IMG/VR virus record: IMGVR_UViG_3300028165_000034
Span: 1-64,000 of that record
Origin: an uncultured virus (IMG/VR IMGVR_UViG_3300028165_000034)
Lineage: Duplodnaviria; Heunggongvirae; Uroviricota; Caudoviricetes
DNA: 64,000 bases
Reading direction: 5' to 3' (one strand)
The position numbers were made by a program, and so were the translations under genes. This document shows positions 1,300 through 33,500 of the stretch, piece by piece. The notes under the pieces were generated by a model. It was not told the origin of the DNA, did not search any database, and worked only from the letters and a program-made list of their open reading frames with translations. Within the stretch, counting starts at the first letter, position 1, and every line of letters starts with the position of its first letter.

Positions 1300-2106
1300 A
1301 TGGCAGAATTGACCATCAAGGACCTCAAAGAGGCCAAGTATAACCCGCGTGTCATCAGTGAAAAGCGACTGGACAACCTGCACCTGTCCATGACTACCTA
1401 CGGTGACCTGTCCGGCGTCGTCTTCAACAAGAAGACCCAGAACCTGATTTCCGGTCACCAGCGCTTGAAGCGTCTGCGCGGTAAGGACGTCAAGACCAAG
1501 ATCGTCACAAAGCCTGTGAAGGACGCCTTCGGTACCGTTGCAGAAGGTCACATCGTTGCGAAGACTGCGAGCGGCGAAATCCGTATCCCACTACGCATCG
1601 TGGACTGGAGCGACAAGAAATCCGAGATGGCGGCCAACATCGCAGCGAACGCGCACGGTGGCGACTTCGACCGTACCAAGCTGGGCGTTATGCTGGAGAA
1701 GCTCGACGCCGGCAAGTCGTTCGACGTGAACGTTCTGGGTATCGACCCACTGAGCCTGCGTGGCTTGATGCCAAAGATGCCAACGCTCGACTCCAAAGGT
1801 CGCGAAATCGACAACGATGGCGAAGGCAAGGAGTCGTTCCAAGAGTTCGGCGAGGACAGCTTCGAGTTCGAGCATTGCTGCCCGAAGTGCAAATTCCAGT
1901 TCAACACCAGTGCCAAGTCGCAGCCTGCGGCCAAGGCTGAGCCGAAAGCTCCGAAGCTCAAGCTGAAAGAGAAAGACGGCAAGAAGGAAAAGTCGAAAGA
2001 CAAAGAGAAGGTCAAGAGTAAGGACAAGGGTGACAAGCCCAAGAAATCCAAGCTCGCGGCTCCGAAGAAAACAGAGCTGAAAATGCCAGCGAAGAAAAAG
2101 AAGTAA
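1300..2106 (+). CDS. ParB/Srx-like N-terminal domain protein with CxxC motif and Lys-rich tail
   Basis: YNPRVI...LISGHQRL ParB signature; CCPKC; basic C-terminus. Confidence 0.75.
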   Translation: MAELTIKDLKEAKYNPRVISEKRLDNLHLSMTTYGDLSGVVFNKKTQNLISGHQRLKRLRGKDVKTKIVTKPVKDAFGTVAEGHIVAKTASGEIRIPLRIVDWSDKKSEMAANIAANAHGGDFDRTKLGVMLEKLDAGKSFDVNVLGIDPLSLRGLMPKMPTLDSKGREIDNDGEGKESFQEFGEDSFEFEHCCPKCKFQFNTSAKSQPAAKAEPKAPKLKLKEKDGKKEKSKDKEKVKSKDKGDKPKKSKLAAPKKTELKMPAKKKK

Positions 2107-2116
2107 GGACGCAGCC

Positions 2117-3130
2117 ATGGCCAATGAGAAACGCATTCCCAAGATCCCTTCGATGAAGAAGATCAACGCGCTGCCCAAGCACTTCAAAGGCATCAGTTCT
2201 TTCAGTGGCTGTGGCGGCTCGTCTACTGGCGTGAAGATGGCGGGCATCCAAGTGCTCGCGGCTACCGAGTTCATCAAGCCGGCCATCGAAACCTACCAGA
2301 AGAACCACAAAGGCACCATGGTCATCGGCGAAGACATTCGCAAGGTTGACTGGGCAGCCATTCGCAAAGAGCTTGGCCTGAAACGTGGCCAGCTCGACTT
2401 CTCGGAAGGTAGCCCACCGTGCAAGTCATTCTCCACGTCTGGTACTGGCAGTGATGACTGGGGCAAGGAGAAGCTGTACAGCGAGAACGTCTACCAGCGC
2501 ACAGACGACCTCTTCTACGAGGAAATGCGCAAGCTGGAAGCCTTCATGCCGAAGGTATTTGTTTGCGAGAATGTCAAAGGCATGGTCGAGGGTGACGCGA
2601 AAGGCTACTTCGTCGAAATTCTCCGTGACTTGAAGGCGATCGGTTACAGCGTGCGTGCGCAAGTGCTCAACGCTGCATACCTTGGTGTGGCGCAAGCCCG
2701 TGAGCGTGTGATCTTCGTCGGCGTGCGTGACGATCTGGTGAAGAAAGGTTTCGACCCTGTATTCCCAACGCCGCACAAGTATGCCATCAACGTGAATGAC
2801 GTTCTACCTCACGTGGCGTACCTGAAGTCGAAGCACAAGGGTGACCTGAAGTACGTGCCTGCGTCGATCCCGTCACCTACAATCGTGGCTTCGGATGGCA
2901 CCAACAGCGAGACTGCTGGATTCTCCTCAGGTGGATTCATCGAGACGCTGAGCGGTGAGCGCCGTAAGTACACCATCGACGAGTTGAAGACCATCTTCAC
3001 CTTCCCCGAAGACTTCATCTTCACTGGTACCTACAAGCAGCAGTTTGAGCGCATCGGCCGCTCGGTACCACCGCTCATGATGTACCACGTTTGCCGCGAG
3101 CTTCGCCGCAATATCCTCGAAAAGCTGTAA
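2117..3130 (+). CDS. C5-cytosine DNA methyltransferase family; candidate carboxymethyltransferase
   Basis: Motif I FSGCGG, IV PPCKSFS, VI ENVKG, VIII QARERVIFVG, X IGRSVPP (Arg where Asn is usual). Confidence 0.92.
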   Translation: MANEKRIPKIPSMKKINALPKHFKGISSFSGCGGSSTGVKMAGIQVLAATEFIKPAIETYQKNHKGTMVIGEDIRKVDWAAIRKELGLKRGQLDFSEGSPPCKSFSTSGTGSDDWGKEKLYSENVYQRTDDLFYEEMRKLEAFMPKVFVCENVKGMVEGDAKGYFVEILRDLKAIGYSVRAQVLNAAYLGVAQARERVIFVGVRDDLVKKGFDPVFPTPHKYAINVNDVLPHVAYLKSKHKGDLKYVPASIPSPTIVASDGTNSETAGFSSGGFIETLSGERRKYTIDELKTIFTFPEDFIFTGTYKQQFERIGRSVPPLMMYHVCRELRRNILEKL

Positions 3131-3136
3131 GCCTCG

Positions 3137-3168
3137 CACAAAGGGAGCCATCGCGCTCCCTTTTTGTG
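3137..3168 (+). terminator. rho-independent terminator
   Basis: AAAGGGAGC-catcgc-GCTCCCTTTTT. Confidence 0.75.
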
Positions 3169-3175
3169 GCCTTGA

Positions 3176-3184
3176 AACTGTAAA
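3176..3184 (+). promoter_or_regulatory. candidate phage promoter motif AACTGTAAA
   Basis: Directly after a terminator and upstream of the cmoA-like gene. Confidence 0.5.
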
Positions 3185-3227
3185 TGACCAGTAAGCCCAC
3201 ATGGGCATCAAACATGGAGTTACGGAC

Positions 3228-4013
3228 ATGCAACCAATCGAAACCCTGCGCGACGATCACGTACCCGGCCAGAAGTGGGAGTTCAACGAGGACGTCGCCA
3301 AGAAGTTTGACAACATGCTGGAGCGCAGCATCCCCGGCTATGGTTCGATGCGTGAATTGGTGTGGCGACTGGGCAAGAACTTCGTCAAGACACCGTGCAA
3401 CGTCATTGACCTCGGTGCAAGCCGCGGTGAAGCGAGTGCCAAGTTCATTGGTGCGTTCCCAGAAGCCCAGTTCTATCTGAGCGAAATCTCGGACCCGATG
3501 CTTGAAGAAATGCGTGGGCGCTTCGCCGACCAGTTCAACGTACACCCGTGCAGCTACGACCTGCGCAAGAAGGCCAAAGAGATTGCCGACGCCATTCGCT
3601 GGCCGAGTGCGCACATGAGTGGCAGTGTGGAATTCCACAAAGTGCAGACGCTGCCGACTAACCTCGTGCTGTCGATCCTTACCATGATCTTCGTGCCGAT
3701 CAATTTCCGACCGTCCATCCTAAAGGGCGTGTACGATGGTCTGGAATCTGGCGGTGCCTTCTTCATGGTAGAGAAGGTGCTGGGCAACACGGCAGTGATG
3801 CAAGAACTGCTGGTCGATGCCTACCATGAGTACAAGCACGACAACGGCTATAGCTGGGAAGACATTGAGCGCAAGCGTGCAGCCCTCGAAGGTGTTCAGG
3901 TCCCAGTGACCCATGAGAACAATATCGAAATGCTGCGCACCGCTGGCTTCCGTAGCGTCGAGACGTTCTTCCGCAACCTCAACTTCGTGGGCTACATCGC
4001 CATCAAGGACTAA
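3228..4013 (+). CDS. cmoA: CmoA-like carboxy-S-adenosyl-L-methionine synthase (alternative start 3201)
   Basis: WEFNEDVAKKFDNMLERSIPGY, DLGASRG SAM-binding motif, and ERKRAALEGV matching the CmoA KRxxLE segment; GGAG upstream of 3228. Confidence 0.8.
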   Translation: MQPIETLRDDHVPGQKWEFNEDVAKKFDNMLERSIPGYGSMRELVWRLGKNFVKTPCNVIDLGASRGEASAKFIGAFPEAQFYLSEISDPMLEEMRGRFADQFNVHPCSYDLRKKAKEIADAIRWPSAHMSGSVEFHKVQTLPTNLVLSILTMIFVPINFRPSILKGVYDGLESGGAFFMVEKVLGNTAVMQELLVDAYHEYKHDNGYSWEDIERKRAALEGVQVPVTHENNIEMLRTAGFRSVETFFRNLNFVGYIAIKD

Positions 4014-4016
4014 GCA

Positions 4017-4469
4017 ATGCGCGAACTCCAATTGCTCCGCAAGCGTGTGAAAACGCTGTGGAAAATGGAAGAGGGCCTGAGCCCGAATGAGCGTCGCCTT
4101 CATCAGTGGCAAGTGTCTGCAACCCAAGCAGGCATCATGTACACCGTTGGTAAGGGCGATGCCAACACGTTCTTCTATGCCGTCAACGGCAACGATATGA
4201 AGTTCGTGATGCCAGACGTGATGATGAAGTTGCTGGACGATTGGACCAACAGCGATTACGTGGCGTACACGATCACCAAGAAGAAGGATATCAGCGGCAT
4301 GCCTTTGCGCACGTCGCCAGCCGCCTTCCTTAAAGTGACGAAGGACAAGTACCTGGGTTACTACATCGTGGGCATCAAGTCCAACGGTGACATTGTTCGC
4401 CTGCACAAACTTGAAGGCGGACTCCAGGGTAATCACTGGGTAAAATTCAAAGGCAAGAAGAAACGCTAG
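4017..4469 (+). CDS. hypothetical protein within the modification cluster
   Basis: 150-aa ORF tightly coupled to both neighbours. Confidence 0.7.
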   Translation: MRELQLLRKRVKTLWKMEEGLSPNERRLHQWQVSATQAGIMYTVGKGDANTFFYAVNGNDMKFVMPDVMMKLLDDWTNSDYVAYTITKKKDISGMPLRTSPAAFLKVTKDKYLGYYIVGIKSNGDIVRLHKLEGGLQGNHWVKFKGKKKR

Positions 4470-4477
4470 GAGCGATC

Positions 4478-5335
4478 ATGGATCAGAAGACGCGAGCCAG
4501 AAAGCTCCGTAAAGCCCTTGTTGAACGGGCAGCGTCGTACGGCGTGAAGAAGGTAGCCGTGCCAATGAGCAGCGGTGTGGACAGTCACTGCGCCCTGTTC
4601 GCTTGCCTTGAGGCTGGGTTGAAGCCGCATGTGTACAGCTTCCACCTCGAAGGTGTCGAGAGCCGCGACGTGCGCATCGCCCAACTGACTGCGAAAGAGT
4701 TCGGACTGCCGTTTACCAAAGTCACATTGCCCACTGGTCAGAAGCGTTTGATGAAGGACGTCGTGAAGCTCGCCGAGTTTGGCTGCCGATCGAAGACCGA
4801 CTTCGAGTGCTTCTGGCCAATGTACCATCTGCTGCCCAAGATCAAGGAAGACGTGTTCTTCACTGGTCACGGTGCAGACAGCCTGTACTGCCTGAGTCGC
4901 AAAGCCTGCCAGCACTACGCTGGGCGCGAAGACGAATTCCGTGCGCTCGCATTCTCGTCCAACAAAGCCTTCCAGAAGGGCTTGATCGAGAAGTGGTGTG
5001 CAGAGAACGGCGGTGACCTTGCGTACTGCCCGATCTTCTTCACACCGAAGATTCTGAAAATCTTCCAGGGTGCGACCCCTGCTGACCTGAACAAGCCTAT
5101 TCAGAAGGCAGTCAGCCGCATGGCATTCGAGGAGTATTTCGAGCGCGTGCGTGTGTACGTTCACCAACCGTTTCAGTTGGGTGACACTGGCATCAAGGCT
5201 GGCTTCGAGGAGCATCTGCTCGAAAGCCCACTGAACACCAAAGGCTACAAGTCTGTAGTCGGCATCTACAACGAGCTGGTGCGTACTCACGGTCCAGCAG
5301 TAAGCGAACCAGATACAGGGTGGGACGACGAATGA
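4478..5335 (+). CDS. asparagine synthetase-like ATP pyrophosphatase (amide ligase) lacking a glutaminase domain
   Basis: PP-loop MSSGVDS near the N-terminus, FTGHGADSLY (AsnB GxGADE-like), QKAVSRMAF; only 285 aa. Confidence 0.8.
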   Translation: MDQKTRARKLRKALVERAASYGVKKVAVPMSSGVDSHCALFACLEAGLKPHVYSFHLEGVESRDVRIAQLTAKEFGLPFTKVTLPTGQKRLMKDVVKLAEFGCRSKTDFECFWPMYHLLPKIKEDVFFTGHGADSLYCLSRKACQHYAGREDEFRALAFSSNKAFQKGLIEKWCAENGGDLAYCPIFFTPKILKIFQGATPADLNKPIQKAVSRMAFEEYFERVRVYVHQPFQLGDTGIKAGFEEHLLESPLNTKGYKSVVGIYNELVRTHGPAVSEPDTGWDDE

Positions 5336-5967
5336 GCACCGTGATGACCAAGTACACTCGGATCAACCTGAACACGGCCGAGCTGTACTTCAAACAAGCC
5401 TGCGCCGAGTTGTACCCAACGTTCGATCATCCGAACAAGGCACAGTTGCGCGCAGCCTACGACAAGATCATGGACGGCGGTGTTGATCGTCCAGAATTTG
5501 AGCGTCCTGCTGAGTGTCCAGCACTGACGCCTCTCCAGATCGAGTTCGCAGAAGGTGTGGCCAAGCTGGTTGAAGAATACTTCGACTCGGCATCGCCAAG
5601 CGCGACCGCCGTGTACACCTTCCTCGCGTTCGAAGGCCTCGACCCGAAAGAAGGCTACCACATCAGCGAAGACAAGCATGTGATCGACCTGTTCGCTCGC
5701 TTCGTTGACCTAGGCAAAGGTGCCTACGACTACATCGCTCGCCGTGCAATCCAGCAGACCCATGTCGATCCCCGTTTCATCGTGATCCGTTTGGCTGACG
5801 ACTGCAAGCGCTACGGCGTGCGTACTCTGCGTGCTCCAACGTCGGAAGGTGAAGTGATGTTCAGCCTCGATCCGCTTGAGCACCACAAGAAGTTCGACAA
5901 TCAAATCTTCATCCCAGCGATCGGCGGTTACTACGGCATCGTTGGCAAGACTCGTTCCGAGGGCTGA
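5332..5967 (+). CDS. hypothetical protein
   Basis: ATGA overlap with upstream stop. Confidence 0.7.
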   Translation: MSTVMTKYTRINLNTAELYFKQACAELYPTFDHPNKAQLRAAYDKIMDGGVDRPEFERPAECPALTPLQIEFAEGVAKLVEEYFDSASPSATAVYTFLAFEGLDPKEGYHISEDKHVIDLFARFVDLGKGAYDYIARRAIQQTHVDPRFIVIRLADDCKRYGVRTLRAPTSEGEVMFSLDPLEHHKKFDNQIFIPAIGGYYGIVGKTRSEG

Positions 5968-29431: not shown

Positions 29432-29941
29432 ATGCAAATCACCAAAGAGAAGATGATGGCGCAGCAGCTGGTGCTGTTCCATCTCGGCTACTACAAGGGT
29501 AACATCGACGGTATCTGGAGCGCCGCCACCATCCAAGCCAAGAAAGACTTCGAGGCCGATGTGTCGTTCCTGCCTGCGTACCCGAACGGCGGCCTGCCTT
29601 TCGGTGAGCGCGACAAGTTGCCGAAGAACTGGGTCTATCAGGCCAAGGGTTTGATCGGCCATCGCTCGCTCGACGCTGAGAAGGCGAAAGAAATCATGGC
29701 AGACCACACCAAGCGCATCGAAGCCTCGCAAGCCCGTGCGCAGGCAGAAGTTGCCAAGACCGCTGGTCAAGTCCAAACGCCGCAGCCTACTGCCGACGTG
29801 AACGACAAGACCACGGTCAAGGAAGAGCGCCTTGTCACCGACAGTCCACAGCGCGAAGACACTGTGCAGTCGAAGACAGCGCGTGCCCAGGTCCTCGAAA
29901 CCAACGAGGGTAACCACGACAAGAACAAAAGGAACGGCTAA
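29432..29941 (+). CDS. peptidoglycan-binding domain protein
   Basis: QQLVLFHLGYYKGNIDGIWSAATIQAKKDFE resembles PG_binding_1. Confidence 0.7.
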   Translation: MQITKEKMMAQQLVLFHLGYYKGNIDGIWSAATIQAKKDFEADVSFLPAYPNGGLPFGERDKLPKNWVYQAKGLIGHRSLDAEKAKEIMADHTKRIEASQARAQAEVAKTAGQVQTPQPTADVNDKTTVKEERLVTDSPQREDTVQSKTARAQVLETNEGNHDKNKRNG

Positions 29942-30445
29942 GTGAAACACCCTGCTGAGTTGACCTATGCAGCATTCAGACTCCGGGGTGCCACGCGACG
30001 TTACCTGTTCTGCCGTACCGACGAGAAGCCTCACTTCGGTGACAACACGTTCGACTTCCTCGGTTACTTTGGTTTCGGCAGTGGTGAGTTTGGAGGTGAG
30101 CACCCACAGCAGTTCGACGGACTGCGCGTCAAGGTGCAAGTCTTCACGGACCCTGAATTCGCTCTGGCCTATATCTCGACGCTGATGACTCAGCCGACGG
30201 ATGGGTTCAGTGGCTTCTTCACCCACGACGGCTACACGTTCCATGTCGTGACCGAGGACGCAGAGGGTGTTCCACTGACTCACCTGAAAGCGCTCAACTG
30301 GCACTACTACACCAACGTTGGCGGCTCCAAGAAACTTGCGCATGACCACATCGTGACCTTGAATCGTCGCCATGTGCTGTTCGCAACCTACGAGGAGCAG
30401 AGTGCGTTACTCACGCGCTACGCCAAACTCGCTGGAGTTTTCTAG
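29942..30445 (+). CDS. hypothetical protein
   Basis: GTG start abutting upstream stop. Confidence 0.65.
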   Translation: MKHPAELTYAAFRLRGATRRYLFCRTDEKPHFGDNTFDFLGYFGFGSGEFGGEHPQQFDGLRVKVQVFTDPEFALAYISTLMTQPTDGFSGFFTHDGYTFHVVTEDAEGVPLTHLKALNWHYYTNVGGSKKLAHDHIVTLNRRHVLFATYEEQSALLTRYAKLAGVF

Positions 30446-30449
30446 CACC

Positions 30450-30478
30450 AAGGCGGCCTTCGGGTCGCCTTTTTCTTT
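30450..30478 (+). terminator. rho-independent terminator
   Basis: AAGGCGGCC-TTCG-GGTCGCCTTTTT. Confidence 0.85.
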
Positions 30479-30480
30479 GG

Positions 30481-30489
30481 AACTGTAAA
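30481..30489 (+). promoter_or_regulatory. candidate phage promoter motif AACTGTAAA
   Basis: Between the terminator and the DNA polymerase start. Confidence 0.5.
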
Positions 30490-30516
30490 CACACCATAGT
30501 CTTTGACTAGAGGTCC

Positions 30517-33500
30517 GTGACAATGCCGAAGTGCGATCACGTCGAGTTGGACTATACATACTCCAAGAAGTTCCGTAGAGTCGAGAACAACTATGGGTAT
30601 GTCCGGCTCGCCAAATCTTCCAAGAAGAACGCGAAGAGGAAAATCCTGTTCGTGCTCGATTATGTGCCGACCGAAGACCTACGCTCTGGTCGGATGCTGT
30701 CTGGTGCCACTGGTCAGTTGTTTGACAACCTGATCGCCGTGGTCGAACGCCACTATCACTCTGAGGTCAAACTCTCCGAGTGCAACTGGCTGGCTGTGAG
30801 TTACAACGCTTTCAAGACTGCTGGCATGCCTGAGCAATTCCGCACAGAAGCCAAGCAGGAGTTTACCGAGCGCATCAACCACATCATCACCGAGTACAAG
30901 CCTGACGTTGTGATGACGTTTGGTATGGACCCGCTGCGTGCGCTCAATGGGGAATACATCAGCAAGTTCCGCGACAAGAAAGGCATTCACTGGGAGCACT
31001 TCTACGGTGTGCCAATCAAGACGAAGGCCAAGTCTGGTGGCAAGACGCACAAGTACAAGCACGTCAGTTCGTTCAGCCTGAACACGTTGGTGGGTGCCAC
31101 AGGTAAGGGTGAGCCAATGTACCTAGCCGGGTACGTGGCACGCAACATTATGAACGCGCTGTACGGCAAGCTTCGATACGAAATGCCGAAGCTGGAGTTC
31201 AAGACTCGACTGGTTGACTCCATCGAGAAGTTTGACAAGATGATGGAGACTCTGTACGACGCGCCTGTTGTCGCAATCGACACAGAGACCAAGAACCTGA
31301 ACCGCATCGTGAACCGAATGCTGACTATCCAGTTCGCAGTCGATGAACATGCGGCGTACATCGTTCCTATCGGGCACAAGGACAGTCCTTGGCTGCCTGA
31401 GGAATTGAAGTACATCAAGAAGAAGCTCAAGGCCTACTTCGAGCATCGCAACAAGAACAAGGAACACATCTACGCCAACGCCGTGTTCGACCTGAATCGG
31501 ATTCGCGTTGACCTGGGTGTGCGGCATTTCAAGAATGCCGTGTGGGACGTGTTCGCAGGTGAGTTTGGTCTGGACGAGAACATGAAGATCATGAACTCGT
31601 ACGGCAACACCTACTACACCTTGTTGAACATCACCATGCAGTACGGGTGCCATGCGTACTACGAGTCGGACTTCGGTAAGGACAAGCGTGCCACGATTGA
31701 AACCGTGGACTTGGACAAGCCGCTCCTGAACTACTGTGCGCTGGACGTTATCACCCTGATCCACATTCGTCGCCTGCAGATACAGCGTGCGAAGGACTTT
31801 GGCTATCGCAAGTTCAAGTCCATCGTGCGCGAGCAGATCAGCGATATGCTCCACGTGTTCTCCTGTCTGGAGACCAACGGATGTAAGACGGATATCAACT
31901 GGTTGTTCTACCTCAAGTCGAACGACAGTCCGATCATCCAGCATCGCGAGGCAGTCATCAAGGCGTTGGAAGAAACGGCAGGTGCCGAGAAGACCAACAA
32001 CCGACTCCAGAAGAATACCGGCGCGCCAGCGAAAGGTATCTGGGGCAAGACCAAGATGAAGATTTTCAACGTGGCGAAGAAAGCGCACTTGAACATGATG
32101 ATGTTCGACGTGCTCAAGTTGAAACCCACGTCTGTCGGCAAGAACGGTCAAGGCGCCGTCGACAAGGACTTCCAGAAGAAGTATGCGGACGTCCCAGAGG
32201 TCGCGCTGTATAACGAGCTCCAGAAGATCAAGAAAATCTTCAACAGCTACGTCAAGGCGTTCGTGAAGCAATGGGGTTCCGACCCTGATATGCGGTTCGA
32301 CTCCTGCATCCGACCGTTCTTCAACTTCCGTGACGTTGTGACGGGCCGTACTTCTGCGAAGAAGCCGTCGCTCCACCAGTTGCCAAGTCGAAACGACATT
32401 ACCGAGTTCATCAAGAAGATGTTCCCGGGACGTGCCGACCTTGGTAAGTTCATCAAGCGATTGTTCATTGCGGACAAGGGCCGTCTGATCCTAAAGATCG
32501 ACTATGCGGCTCACGAAGTTCGTGGTTGGTCGATCATCACTGGTGACAAGGAAGTAGCTGACCTGTTCTGGCACGGCTTGCGTATGCGTAACCAGTACAA
32601 GCTGTTCCCGACGCCTGAGCTTGCGCACAAGATCGCGATGGAAGGTGACGTCCACCGTATCAACGCCGCGTACTTCTTCGGCATGGATATCAACGACGTT
32701 GACAAGCCGAAGCGTAACAGCGTTAAGCAGGTAGTCTTCGGTCTGATCTACCAGCAGGGTGTTGAAGGTTCTGCGAAGTCTACTGGCCAGACGGTCGAAG
32801 CGATTAAGGCACTGATCAAGGCGTTCTTCAAACGCTTCCCAGTTGGTGCTGGTTGGTTCGACAAGATCAAGAAGAAGGCTGCCGACCAGTTGTTCGTCGA
32901 GTCTCCTCTGGGTCGCCGTCGTAACCTGTGGGCGTTCCTGATTCCGAAAGATGCCAAGTCGTTTGATGGTGTGTACGCGGCTACTGGTCGTCGTGCAGTG
33001 AACTCGCCGATTCAGGGCATGGGTTCTGACTTCCTCGTGTCTGGTGCTCGCCTGATTGAGCAACTGCGCTGGAAGCACTACAAAGAGACCAAGCACTACC
33101 CAGACTTCTACATGACCAACTCGGTACACGACTCCCTTGAGTTCTCGGTTGCTTATGAAGACGTGTGGAACGCGATCCGTATTATCGAACACGGTCTTAC
33201 CTACGGTGTGATGGACGTCATGGAGAAACGCCATGGCATGAAGTTCCTCGTGCCGCTGGAGATTGACTTCGAGATTGGTGCGAACATCCGCGACTGCGCT
33301 GGTTGGGACTACAGCCTCAAGTCTGCCGATCCTGATTTCAAGGACAACGTGGCAGGCAAGAAGCCAGTGGACAAGAAAGGCGAGAAGAAGGAAGACGATG
33401 GAAGTATCGAGAACCTGATCTACCAAGCGCTCAAGCAGCAGCGCGACGAGTTCAAGTACGATGTGGACGTCGATGCCGTATTCAAGCAAATCATGTCCAA

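Follow-up and report, generated by a model that had tools for sequence, protein, structure and literature searches.

C5-cytosine methyltransferases usually carry an Asn in motif X (GN[S/A]V), but a predicted member of this family encoded near the start of a 64,000-nucleotide stretch of uncultured Caudoviricetes DNA (IMG/VR record IMGVR_UViG_3300028165_000034, positions 1 to 64,000; hereafter, the window) has Arg315 in that column. Could this single residue indicate that the enzyme uses carboxy-S-adenosylmethionine (Cx-SAM) in place of SAM? A sequence-only reading of the window had proposed exactly this, by analogy with an engineered Asn-to-Lys change in M.MpeI. The Arg itself is as that reading described it: translated in frame, the motif X codons (GAG CGC ATC GGC CGC TCG GTA CCA CCG) encode E311 R312 I313 G314 R315 S316 V317 P318 P319, as checked by script. 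The features discussed below are collected in Table 1.

Table 1. Features of the putative cytosine modification cluster and its surroundings in the window.
Feature	Coordinates	Strand	Basis
ParB-like protein, 268 aa, directly upstream of cmoX	1300..2106	+	phrog_620 'ParB-like partition protein', E 5.7e-33
cmoX, predicted DNA cytosine C5-carboxymethyltransferase, 337 aa	2117..3130	+	PF00145 and 8yf3_A matches
SPPC motif (S99 P100 P101 C102) with catalytic Cys	2411..2422	+	translation
Ser122 (codon AGC), WGK-x-K-x-YS loop after motif IV	2480..2482	+	co-varies with Arg315
Motif X ERIGRSVPP; Arg315 = codon CGC 3059-3061	3047..3073	+	translation and alignments
Stem-loop followed by U-run just past the cmoX stop codon, terminator-like	3140..3163	+	RNA fold
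cmoA, predicted carboxy-SAM synthase, 270 aa from ATG 3201	3201..4013	+	TIGR00740, PDB and SpCmoA matches
150-aa protein, phrog_23597, conserved between cmoA and cmoY	4017..4469	+	gene context
cmoY-like ATP-dependent amide ligase, 285 aa, asparagine-synthetase C-terminal domain only	4478..5335	+	PF00733

Both sequence and predicted structure place the protein among C5-cytosine methyltransferases. The Pfam profile PF00145 aligns to residues 23-329 through its positions 1-322 of 324 (E 1.5e-49), and the AF2 model of the protein (pLDDT 92.0) has only enzymes of this class among its top fold matches. When the model was compared with solved structures, the best match was 8yf3 (E 7.5e-29, TM 0.77), with HaeIII (E 2.4e-21), HhaI (E 4.4e-21) and, at rank 48, M.MpeI 4dkj also recovered. 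The top PDB sequence match was likewise 8yf3_A (E 1e-57), the next being HaeIII (E 6e-23). Structure 8YF3 is SpCmoX from Synechococcus phage S-B43, crystallised with Cx-SAM at 1.9 A, in which Arg350 contacts the carboxylate of the carboxymethyl group; SpCmoX and the CmoX family were published in December 2025, with 5,615 candidates counted (Yang et al., Nat Commun 17:281, PMC12783734). The wild-type enzyme accepts Cx-SAM only, and not SAM (PMC12783734).

HMMER and BLASTP alignments both pair R315 with SpCmoX R350. In the HMMER alignments the same residue faces an Asn both in M.HaeIII ('IGNAVP'; 1dct, 3ubt) and in plant MET1 chains deposited under the name DNMT1 ('IGNAVPP'). By these alignments, R315 occupies the position of the motif X Asn. 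Local HMMER alignments to M.HhaI (10mh, query residues 25-230 only) and to M.MpeI (4dkj, query residues 94-212 only, E 5.6e-06) stop short of motif X, which was aligned only to 8yf3, HaeIII and MET1 when PDB sequences were searched with the whole protein and with a C-terminal fragment. The equivalence of R315 to HhaI N304 and MpeI N374 follows instead from its pairing with SpCmoX R350 together with the crystal superposition in PMC12783734. Across a set of 121 sequences, comprising the window protein and its 120 nearest cluster representatives, the R315 column is occupied by R in 117 cases, by N in 2 and by M in 2, which argues that Arg315 is not a chance substitution.

The remainder of the active site also resembles that of SpCmoX, to which the window protein is homologous along its full length. 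Its SPPC motif, one of the two criteria for the CmoX family (PMC12783734), aligns with S95-C98 of SpCmoX and is invariant at all four columns in 121/121 sequences; since Asn-type relatives carry SPPC too, the motif by itself does not set CmoX apart. Residues F29, E51, F52, D73 and C102 align with F25, E47, F48, D69 and C98, the Cx-SAM contacts and nucleophile named for SpCmoX (PMC12783734); the adenine and ribose contacts are conserved, and the five columns are close to uniform among the 121 sequences (F 121, E 121, F 119, D 120 and C 121, respectively). Overall identity to the S-B43 enzyme is 36%, the window protein is 35 residues shorter, and residues ~210-280, the target-recognition region between motifs VIII and IX, align poorly. 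Thus, the target sequence may differ from the GC recognized in S-B43. M.HhaI and M.HaeIII share the fold and catalytic motifs, but they have Asn (GN[A/S]V), use SAM and have no linked CmoA.

The adjoining gene downstream encodes a CmoA homologue. Its top NCBIfam match is TIGR00740 (CmoA; E 1e-37), at 130.1 bits below the equivalog cut-off of 193.3. The best PDB matches are YecO (1im8, E 2.7e-27) and E. coli CmoA (4gek, E 3.6e-25), and identity to the biochemically proven SpCmoA is 30% (E 5e-31). Using the 4gek alignment (chain number minus 14), we mapped by hand the residues named for E. coli CmoA in PMC3663124. Y39, D62, G64, S66, F137, E164 and R199 are conserved in the window protein as Y47, D70, G72, S74, F164, E191 and R226; D89 is conservatively replaced by E95, and N90, D117 and N132 are not conserved. 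R199, which thus corresponds to R226, forms a salt bridge with the Cx-SAM carboxylate in E. coli (PMC3663124). The real start of cmoA may be ATG 3228, which has GGAG upstream.

Farther downstream, the CmoY-like ligase matches PF00733 (Asn_synthase, E 8.4e-07, 29.4 bits against a cut-off of 21) as its sole domain, without a glutaminase domain, and is 33% identical to SpCmoY over 243 residues (E 7e-35). Residues 31-36 read SSGVDS, which we take to be a PP-loop-like motif. Homologues of all three S-B43 pathway genes, with CmoA and CmoY co-encoded as in that phage, lie side by side on one strand of the window. The order differs: ParB-like, X, A, the 150-aa gene, Y in the window, and A, Y, X in S-B43. 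A search for CmoB (TIGR00452) found none in the 119-kb record and none in the complete genome of phage PaBG, leaving CmoX as the only evident user of Cx-SAM.

The sequence-only reading had also raised the possibility that GRSV enzymes co-occur with cmoA, and this is borne out for GR(S/A/M)V enzymes generally. We collected 80 IMG/VR loci encoding relatives (39-100% identity), whose motif X column holds Arg in 72, Asn in 7 and Leu in 1. An ORF matching a CmoA profile lies on the same strand within ~2.6 kb in 68/72 Arg loci, or 69/72 when a partial copy at a contig edge (L025) is included, and is found in 0/7 Asn loci and 0/1 Leu locus (Fisher p = 1.7e-8, uncorrected for relatedness). The three remaining Arg-type loci (L040, L069, L073) have no CmoA in the examined flank, which for L069 and L073 extends ~10 kb on one side. 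Because a tree requires only 3 changes of the motif X column, the association reflects few independent events. It also depends on the profile, which was built iteratively from the same loci: single-sequence tblastn with the window CmoA finds CmoA in only 40/72 Arg loci, and the 68-69/72 rests on the iterated profile. For 10/10 sampled divergent profile matches, TIGR00740 was the best family, with every score below its cut-off. The same pairing occurs in an isolate, Moraxella phage Mcat8, which has GRMV, YS and a CmoA-like gene directly downstream.

Homology, residue equivalences, gene neighbourhood and the statistical association of Arg with CmoA together point to a CmoX-type enzyme, and on these sequence grounds we consider it highly likely that the protein transfers a carboxymethyl rather than a methyl group to cytosine C5 of phage DNA, yielding 5-carboxymethylcytosine (5cxmC). 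In the proposed pathway, CmoA would make Cx-SAM from SAM and prephenate, and Arg315 would bind its carboxylate. The usual chemistry would then apply: Cys102 of SPPC would attack C6, the C5 carbanion would take up the carboxymethyl group of the cofactor, and beta-elimination would follow. The CmoY-like ligase would activate the new carboxyl group by adenylation and couple it to an amine, and the resulting hypermodified base could shield the DNA from host nucleases. Activities and structure were shown for the S-B43 homologues only (PMC12783734); that the window CmoX behaves likewise is inferred, as are its target sequence and the amine used by its CmoY. The 36% identity to the sole characterised CmoX and the CmoA score of 130 bits against a cut-off of 193 weigh against the assignment.

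Alternatively, the protein could be an ordinary SAM-dependent enzyme making 5mC, with the motif X Arg a tolerated variant and CmoA acting elsewhere, for instance in host tRNA modification or SAM depletion. Every catalytic C5-methyltransferase motif is indeed present, databases call both the window protein and its PaBG counterpart gp309 'DNA cytosine methylase', and SAM depletion by CmoA was raised as an open question by Yang et al. (PMC12783734). Yet Asn is otherwise the rule among the aligned solved methyltransferases, CmoA lies beside 69/72 Arg loci and 0/8 non-Arg loci, no CmoB was found in the 119-kb record or in PaBG, and the natural Arg enzyme SpCmoX would not take SAM; we regard this explanation as very improbable. 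A methyltransferase remnant, catalytically dead or acting as a DNA-binding regulator, is scarcely credible: SPPC, ENV and R195/R197 are all preserved without variation in 121 relatives, close relatives keep the ORF intact, and the structural model is confident.

A third view, that the enzyme uses both SAM and Cx-SAM and that phage DNA mixes 5mC with 5cxmC-derived bases according to cofactor supply, takes its cue from the engineered enzymes M.MpeI N374K and M.MedI N377K, which carboxymethylate and also methylate with SAM (PMC12015181). In both, a positively charged residue stands in for the motif X Asn and pairs with the carboxylate of Cx-SAM to give 5cxmC, as Arg does in SpCmoX; they differ in having Lys rather than Arg, in being engineered, CpG-specific and only distantly related, and in retaining SAM use (PMC12015181, PMC12783734). 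The Cx-SAM-only specificity of SpCmoX speaks against a dual cofactor, as does S-B43 virion DNA, for which only the glycine adduct, and not 5cxmdC, was reported (PMC12783734). We therefore judge dual use improbable, and a dedicated Cx-SAM enzyme remains the preferred reading. The proposal that R315 is a natural counterpart of M.MpeI N374K gains support from SpCmoX, whose Arg350 was said to 'mirror' that change (PMC12783734). The cofactor-switch idea was right, but it is already in print there and is not a new prediction; reading the raw sequence at the level of single residues matched the logic of a DNA modification system found by experiment only recently, which favours interpreting such substitutions straight from sequence but adds no new principle. 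One experiment suggested along with it, reversion of R315 to Asn, is an unsafe discriminator and need not restore methylation, because SpCmoX R350N was inactive with both SAM and Cx-SAM (PMC12783734).

What besides Arg might set cofactor choice? Ser122 accompanies R315 in 117/117 Arg-type members of the 121-sequence set, and the four non-Arg sequences have E, a gap, R and R at this position. Similarly, Ser is found at position 122 in 71/73 Arg-type sequences from the IMG/VR loci and in 0/8 non-Arg sequences. From this co-variation, Ser122 may have a role alongside Arg315. Natural variants of the pair exist, combining Met315 with Arg122, or having Asn315 without Ser122 or CmoA, and the two residues may form a cofactor switch that has been flipped more than once in nature. 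Such a coupled switch, if true, would explain the dead single mutant R350N. The Met315/Arg122 variants (P0106, P0107) have no close relative in IMG/VR, and a scan of a single metagenome for their relatives returned only one Arg-type sequence (L134, 56% identity), with CmoA adjacent. Separately, we observed that the Asn-type relatives branch from within the CmoX clade.

The window represents part of the genome of a jumbo phage from the PaBG-like Pseudomonas lineage, which is distinct from that of the cyanophage S-B43. Genes gp309-gp306 of PaBG (NC_022096, Baikalvirus) lie in the same five-gene arrangement as in the window, with protein identities of 88.7% for the methyltransferase gp309, 70.8% for CmoA, 53.3% for the 150-aa protein and 81.6% for the ligase gp306. 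Since nucleotide identity is only 76% over 77% of the cluster, the window represents a different phage from PaBG. The PaBG genes carry the annotations methylase, tRNA methyltransferase and asparagine synthase; the passages of the PaBG paper that were consulted make no mention of DNA modification or of these genes as such a system, and neither 'PaBG' nor 'Pseudomonas' appears in the main text of PMC12783734 or in the supplementary text consulted. PaBG-like Pseudomonas jumbo phages, and by extension those of Erwinia, Dickeya and Yersinia, are likely carriers of 5cxmC-derived hypermodified cytosine, which bears on their restriction resistance and on their sequencing and cloning, and is relevant to finding carboxymethyltransferases of new sequence specificity.

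The gene between cmoA and cmoY in the window encodes a protein with no Pfam, NCBIfam or PDB sequence match. Its AF2 model is confident (pLDDT 95.7), and a Foldseek search with it against the PDB gave nothing at E <= 0.001; the best VIA-align wide hit was Pur-alpha (residues 1-79, Z 6.2, in a range the tool calls common), and protein atlas scores were <= 0.87, all to unnamed clusters, so that these matches are leads at most. Relatives occur in 53 phage records, and in 31/33 IMG/VR loci with a relative, ORFs for CmoA and a CmoY-like protein lie on its strand no more than 10 kb away. Among the sequences searched, the family is tightly linked to cmoA and cmoY in jumbo phages and hardly ever occurs apart from them. 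It may be a lineage-specific pathway component, such as a partner of the CmoY-like ligase that binds nucleic acid or presents the amine. A joint reading, in which jumbo phages (perhaps PaBG-like phages and those of Erwinia, Dickeya and Yersinia) have a four-component 5cxmC pathway that includes this protein, together with a Ser122/Arg315 two-residue cofactor switch, is possible but doubtful; if the four-component pathway is real, the final base would differ from the 5-glycylcarboxymethylcytosine of S-B43. We did not find the Ser122 co-variation, the 150-aa family or the nested Asn-type relatives in the main text of PMC12783734, and these could reveal what beyond Arg sets cofactor choice.

Two further elements flank cmoX. 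The upstream ParB-like protein has a weak match to Pfam ParB_N (E 0.14; 12.7 bits against a cut-off of 26.3); its PaBG counterpart, gp310, is annotated ParB-like, and ParBc proteins were reported in 1660 CmoX contigs (PMC12783734). The hairpin between cmoX and cmoA was spotted by eye, a consensus terminator scan not having listed it, and was then folded: the RNA from 3128 to 3185 has a predicted energy of -21.5 kcal/mol (z = -3.58), with 1/200 shuffles as stable.

The sequence-only reading held that the C5-methyltransferase (C5-MTase) encoded in the window has Arg in place of the usual motif X Asn (Arg315, in IGRSVPP), and that this predicts a switch of cofactor to carboxy-S-adenosylmethionine (Cx-SAM). 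A script check confirmed that codon CGC at 3059-3061 encodes Arg315, and HMMER alignments to solved structures pair this residue with the Asn that M.HaeIII has in 'IGNAVP' and that plant MET1, whose chains carry the name DNMT1 in the PDB, has in 'IGNAVPP'. Thus, the frame of the open reading frame (ORF) and these alignments bear out the substitution itself. HMMER searches of PDB sequences with the whole protein and with a C-terminal fragment gave no direct motif X alignment to M.HhaI or M.MpeI, and the equivalence of Arg315 to HhaI Asn304 and M.MpeI N374 is taken from published work. The ORF, whose ATG is preceded by AAGGA eight bases 5', matches C-5 cytosine DNA methylase over nearly the whole profile (Pfam PF00145, E 1.5e-49) and NCBIfam dcm over its cut-off (TIGR00675, 143.8 bits). 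The predicted hairpin that follows it may terminate or attenuate transcription before cmoA is reached.

Features of the cmoX region in the window
Feature	Position	Strand	Remarks
cmoX homologue	2117..3130	+	337 aa; long ORF seen within 1900-3400 (ORF list)
Ser122 codon	2480-2482	+	WGK-x-K-x-YS loop after motif IV
motif X	3047-3073	+	E311-R-I-G-R315-S-V-P-P319; read in frame of ORF 2117..3130
stem-loop then U-run	3140-3163	+	directly after cmoX stop; -21.5 kcal/mol, z -3.58 (RNA fold)
cmoA	3201..4013	+	CmoA is top NCBIfam family (TIGR00740, E 1e-37)
150-aa protein	4017..4469	+	phrog_23597; between cmoA and cmoY
cmoY-like	4478..5335	+	Asn-synthetase C-domain only; PF00733 over cut-off

The system is of a known kind, the CmoA-CmoX-CmoY pathway of 5-carboxymethylcytosine (5cxmC) hypermodification, in print since December 2025. 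According to Yang et al. (PMC12783734; Nat Commun 17:281), CmoX from Synechococcus phage S-B43 (SpCmoX) is a C5-MTase homologue that uses Cx-SAM, supplied by the phage's own CmoA, to make 5cxmC, and the ligase CmoY joins glycine to the carboxyl group. In the 1.9 A structure with Cx-SAM (8YF3), Arg350 stands where HhaI has Asn304 and is in contact with the carboxymethyl group. This Arg is said to 'mirror' the engineered N374K change of M.MpeI. Using SPPC and R350 as criteria, the same paper counts 5,615 candidate CmoX proteins, on contigs that also encode 4,257 CmoA, 2,251 ligases and 1,660 ParBc proteins.

SpCmoX is also the closest solved relative of the window protein. HMMER ranks 8yf3_A first (E 1e-57), followed by M.HaeIII (6e-23), and BLASTP gives 36% identity over 356 columns (E 1e-67). 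In both alignments F29, E51, F52, D73, C102 and R315 pair with SpCmoX F25, E47, F48, D69, C98 and R350, which are described as cofactor contacts, nucleophile and carboxylate-binding Arg (PMC12783734). In the BLASTP alignment the target-recognition region matches that of SpCmoX poorly, and the DNA target motif may differ from that of S-B43. The AlphaFold2 prediction, made from 31 aligned sequences (pLDDT 92.0, pTM 0.91), has 8yf3 as its closest PDB fold (E 7.5e-29, TM 0.77), with HaeIII and HhaI behind and M.MpeI (4dkj) at rank 48. The suggestion that Arg315 is a natural counterpart of M.MpeI N374K is therefore supported, through its alignment with R350 of a homologue that uses Cx-SAM only. These similarities support the prediction that the window CmoX is a further member of the known pathway, from a PaBG-like Pseudomonas jumbo phage.

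We consider it highly probable that CmoA makes Cx-SAM, CmoX transfers the carboxymethyl group and a CmoY-like enzyme carries out amide coupling. CmoA would convert SAM and prephenate to Cx-SAM; CmoX would flip out the target cytosine, attack C6 with Cys102, and transfer the carboxymethyl group from Cx-SAM to C5 while Arg315 grips the Cx-SAM carboxylate; beta-elimination would then release 5cxmC, and the CmoY-like ligase would adenylate the carboxyl group and couple an amine. The steps from Cx-SAM synthesis through 5cxmC release have been shown for the S-B43 homologues, and we infer them for the window proteins.

Three other readings have to be weighed. That the enzyme accepts both cofactors is improbable, and that it is a plain SAM methylase is more improbable still; wild-type SpCmoX uses Cx-SAM only, and its R350N mutant accepts neither cofactor (PMC12783734). 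Since R350N is dead with both, an inactive R315N would neither confirm nor refute the cofactor switch. An inactive remnant is hardly credible: across 121 sequences, the window protein plus the 120 cluster representatives nearest to it, the SPPC motif is invariant. At the motif X column the same set has 117 R, 2 N and 2 M.

The Cx-SAM reading draws further on the gene neighbourhood. The IMG/VR record whose first 64 kb make up the window is 119,354 bases long (CheckV completeness estimate 45%). Among named phages, Pseudomonas phage PaBG, a Baikalvirus of 258 kb, is closest to it, with 76% nucleotide identity across 77% of 1300-5400. Gene order in PaBG is identical: ParB-like gp310, 'DNA cytosine methylase' gp309, 'tRNA methyltransferase' gp308, hypothetical gp307 and 'asparagine synthase' gp306; in the window, too, a ParB-like gene (phrog_620) lies upstream of cmoX. 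CmoX, CmoA and CmoY-like ORFs are all encoded here, and thus all three S-B43 pathway genes are present in the cluster. The CmoA scores 130 bits, under the 193-bit cut-off of its family, and a search of PDB sequences ranks YecO (1im8) and E. coli CmoA (4gek) highest. Identity to SpCmoA, whose activity is biochemically verified, is 30%, and R226 of the window CmoA pairs in the 4gek alignment with E. coli CmoA R199, described in PMC3663124 as forming a salt bridge to the Cx-SAM carboxylate. The start of cmoA is ambiguous: because GGAG lies about 10 bases 5' of ATG 3228 and homologues align from around residue 14-25 onwards, the protein may have 261 aa rather than the 270 aa read from ATG 3201. 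The CmoY-like protein is 33% identical to SpCmoY. CmoB was not found in the 119,354-base record or the complete PaBG genome. Two genes upstream of the modification cluster, a 167-aa ORF (513-1016, + strand) matches DUF7487 (E 1.8e-15) and a TnsA-like endonuclease N-terminal domain (1.4e-05); its PaBG counterpart, gp312, is annotated as a Vsr/MutH/HJR-family endonuclease.

The sequence-only reading also asked whether GRSV MTases co-occur with cmoA. Of 80 IMG/VR loci, retrieved by means of a 31-sequence alignment together with up to 10 kb of flank, 72 encode R at the motif X column, 7 N and 1 L. Single-sequence tblastn with the window CmoA found a neighbour at 40/72 Arg loci and at 0/8 others, and a profile iterated on tblastn matches from the same loci raised this to 68/72 (always on the MTase strand, within about 2.6 kb), again with 0/8 others. 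Counting a truncated copy at the contig edge of L025, the co-occurrence holds for GR(S/A/M)V enzymes at 69/72 loci against 0/8, although Fisher's exact p = 1.7e-8 overstates the evidence, the sequences being related; on a maximum-likelihood tree the motif X column needs only 3 changes. All ten divergent CmoA matches sampled had TIGR00740 as best family, all ten under its cut-off. No CmoA was found in the flank searched at L040, L069 and L073 (Arg-type, GRAV/GRMV; about 10 kb on one side for L069 and L073), where CmoA may be encoded in another part of the genome or Cx-SAM may come from the host. CmoA homologues occur in 70 phage records, overlapping with the best MTase matches; cultured phages in the overlap are PaBG, Erwinia/Dickeya/Yersinia jumbo phages, Streptomyces phage TurkishDelight and Synechococcus phages. 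Moraxella phage Mcat8 has GRMV and a CmoA-like gene directly downstream.

The non-Arg relatives are Asn-type (L020, L030, L050, L056, L063, L070, L071) or Leu-type (L012) loci, with P0054 and P0098 as further proteins. These relatives (39-56% identity) keep SPPC and have a CmoA neighbour at none, including three Asn loci with about 10 kb searched on both sides. In the tree the Asn and Leu loci fall inside the Arg clade, five forming one group and L020, L056 and L012 lying outside it. They resemble natural changes of cofactor type and could help to locate second-shell determinants. Ser122 varies together with Arg315: it is present in 117/117 Arg-type sequences among the window protein and 120 representatives, the four non-Arg proteins being two (M315,R122), one (N315,E122) and one (N315,gap), and in 71/73 Arg-type IMG/VR sequences versus 0/8 non-Arg. 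The Met315/Arg122 forms look like a swap. The co-variation, from few independent events, suggests that residues 122 and 315 are coupled and lie close to the carboxylate of the cofactor; neither 'Ser-126' nor 'S126' appears in the main text of PMC12783734.

The 150-aa protein may be a fourth pathway component in jumbo phages. Pfam, NCBIfam and PDB sequence searches gave no family beyond phrog_23597 and no known domain, and its AF2 model (pLDDT 95.7) no convincing fold match (best Pur-alpha, Z 6.2). Relatives were found in 53 jumbo-phage records (48 from Erwinia phages, 2 each from Pseudomonas and Dickeya phages, 1 from a Yersinia phage), and a 50%-clustered library has 61 representatives. Of 33 IMG/VR loci encoding a relative, 5 with 99% or more identity to the window, all but L122 and L126 have both CmoA and a CmoY-like ORF on its strand no more than 10 kb away (31/33); at 13/31 the gene abuts one of these ORFs, and gene order varies. 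It was not found at 79/80 IMG/VR CmoX loci, the sole carrier (L010) matching the window, and so is a jumbo-phage accessory rather than a universal part.

Other CmoX architectures were also seen. In Erwinia phage pEa_SNUABM_16 (L094, record 29676-31805) the homologue is a 709-aa ORF with its MTase match in two pieces, the C-terminal part aligning with window CmoX residues 102-334; the split may reflect an intein or other insertion. A ParB-like gene precedes it and cmoA lies about 17 kb away, and this form is seen in Erwinia Alexandravirus phages. The metagenomic CmoX relative P0063 has an intein domain (PF14890).
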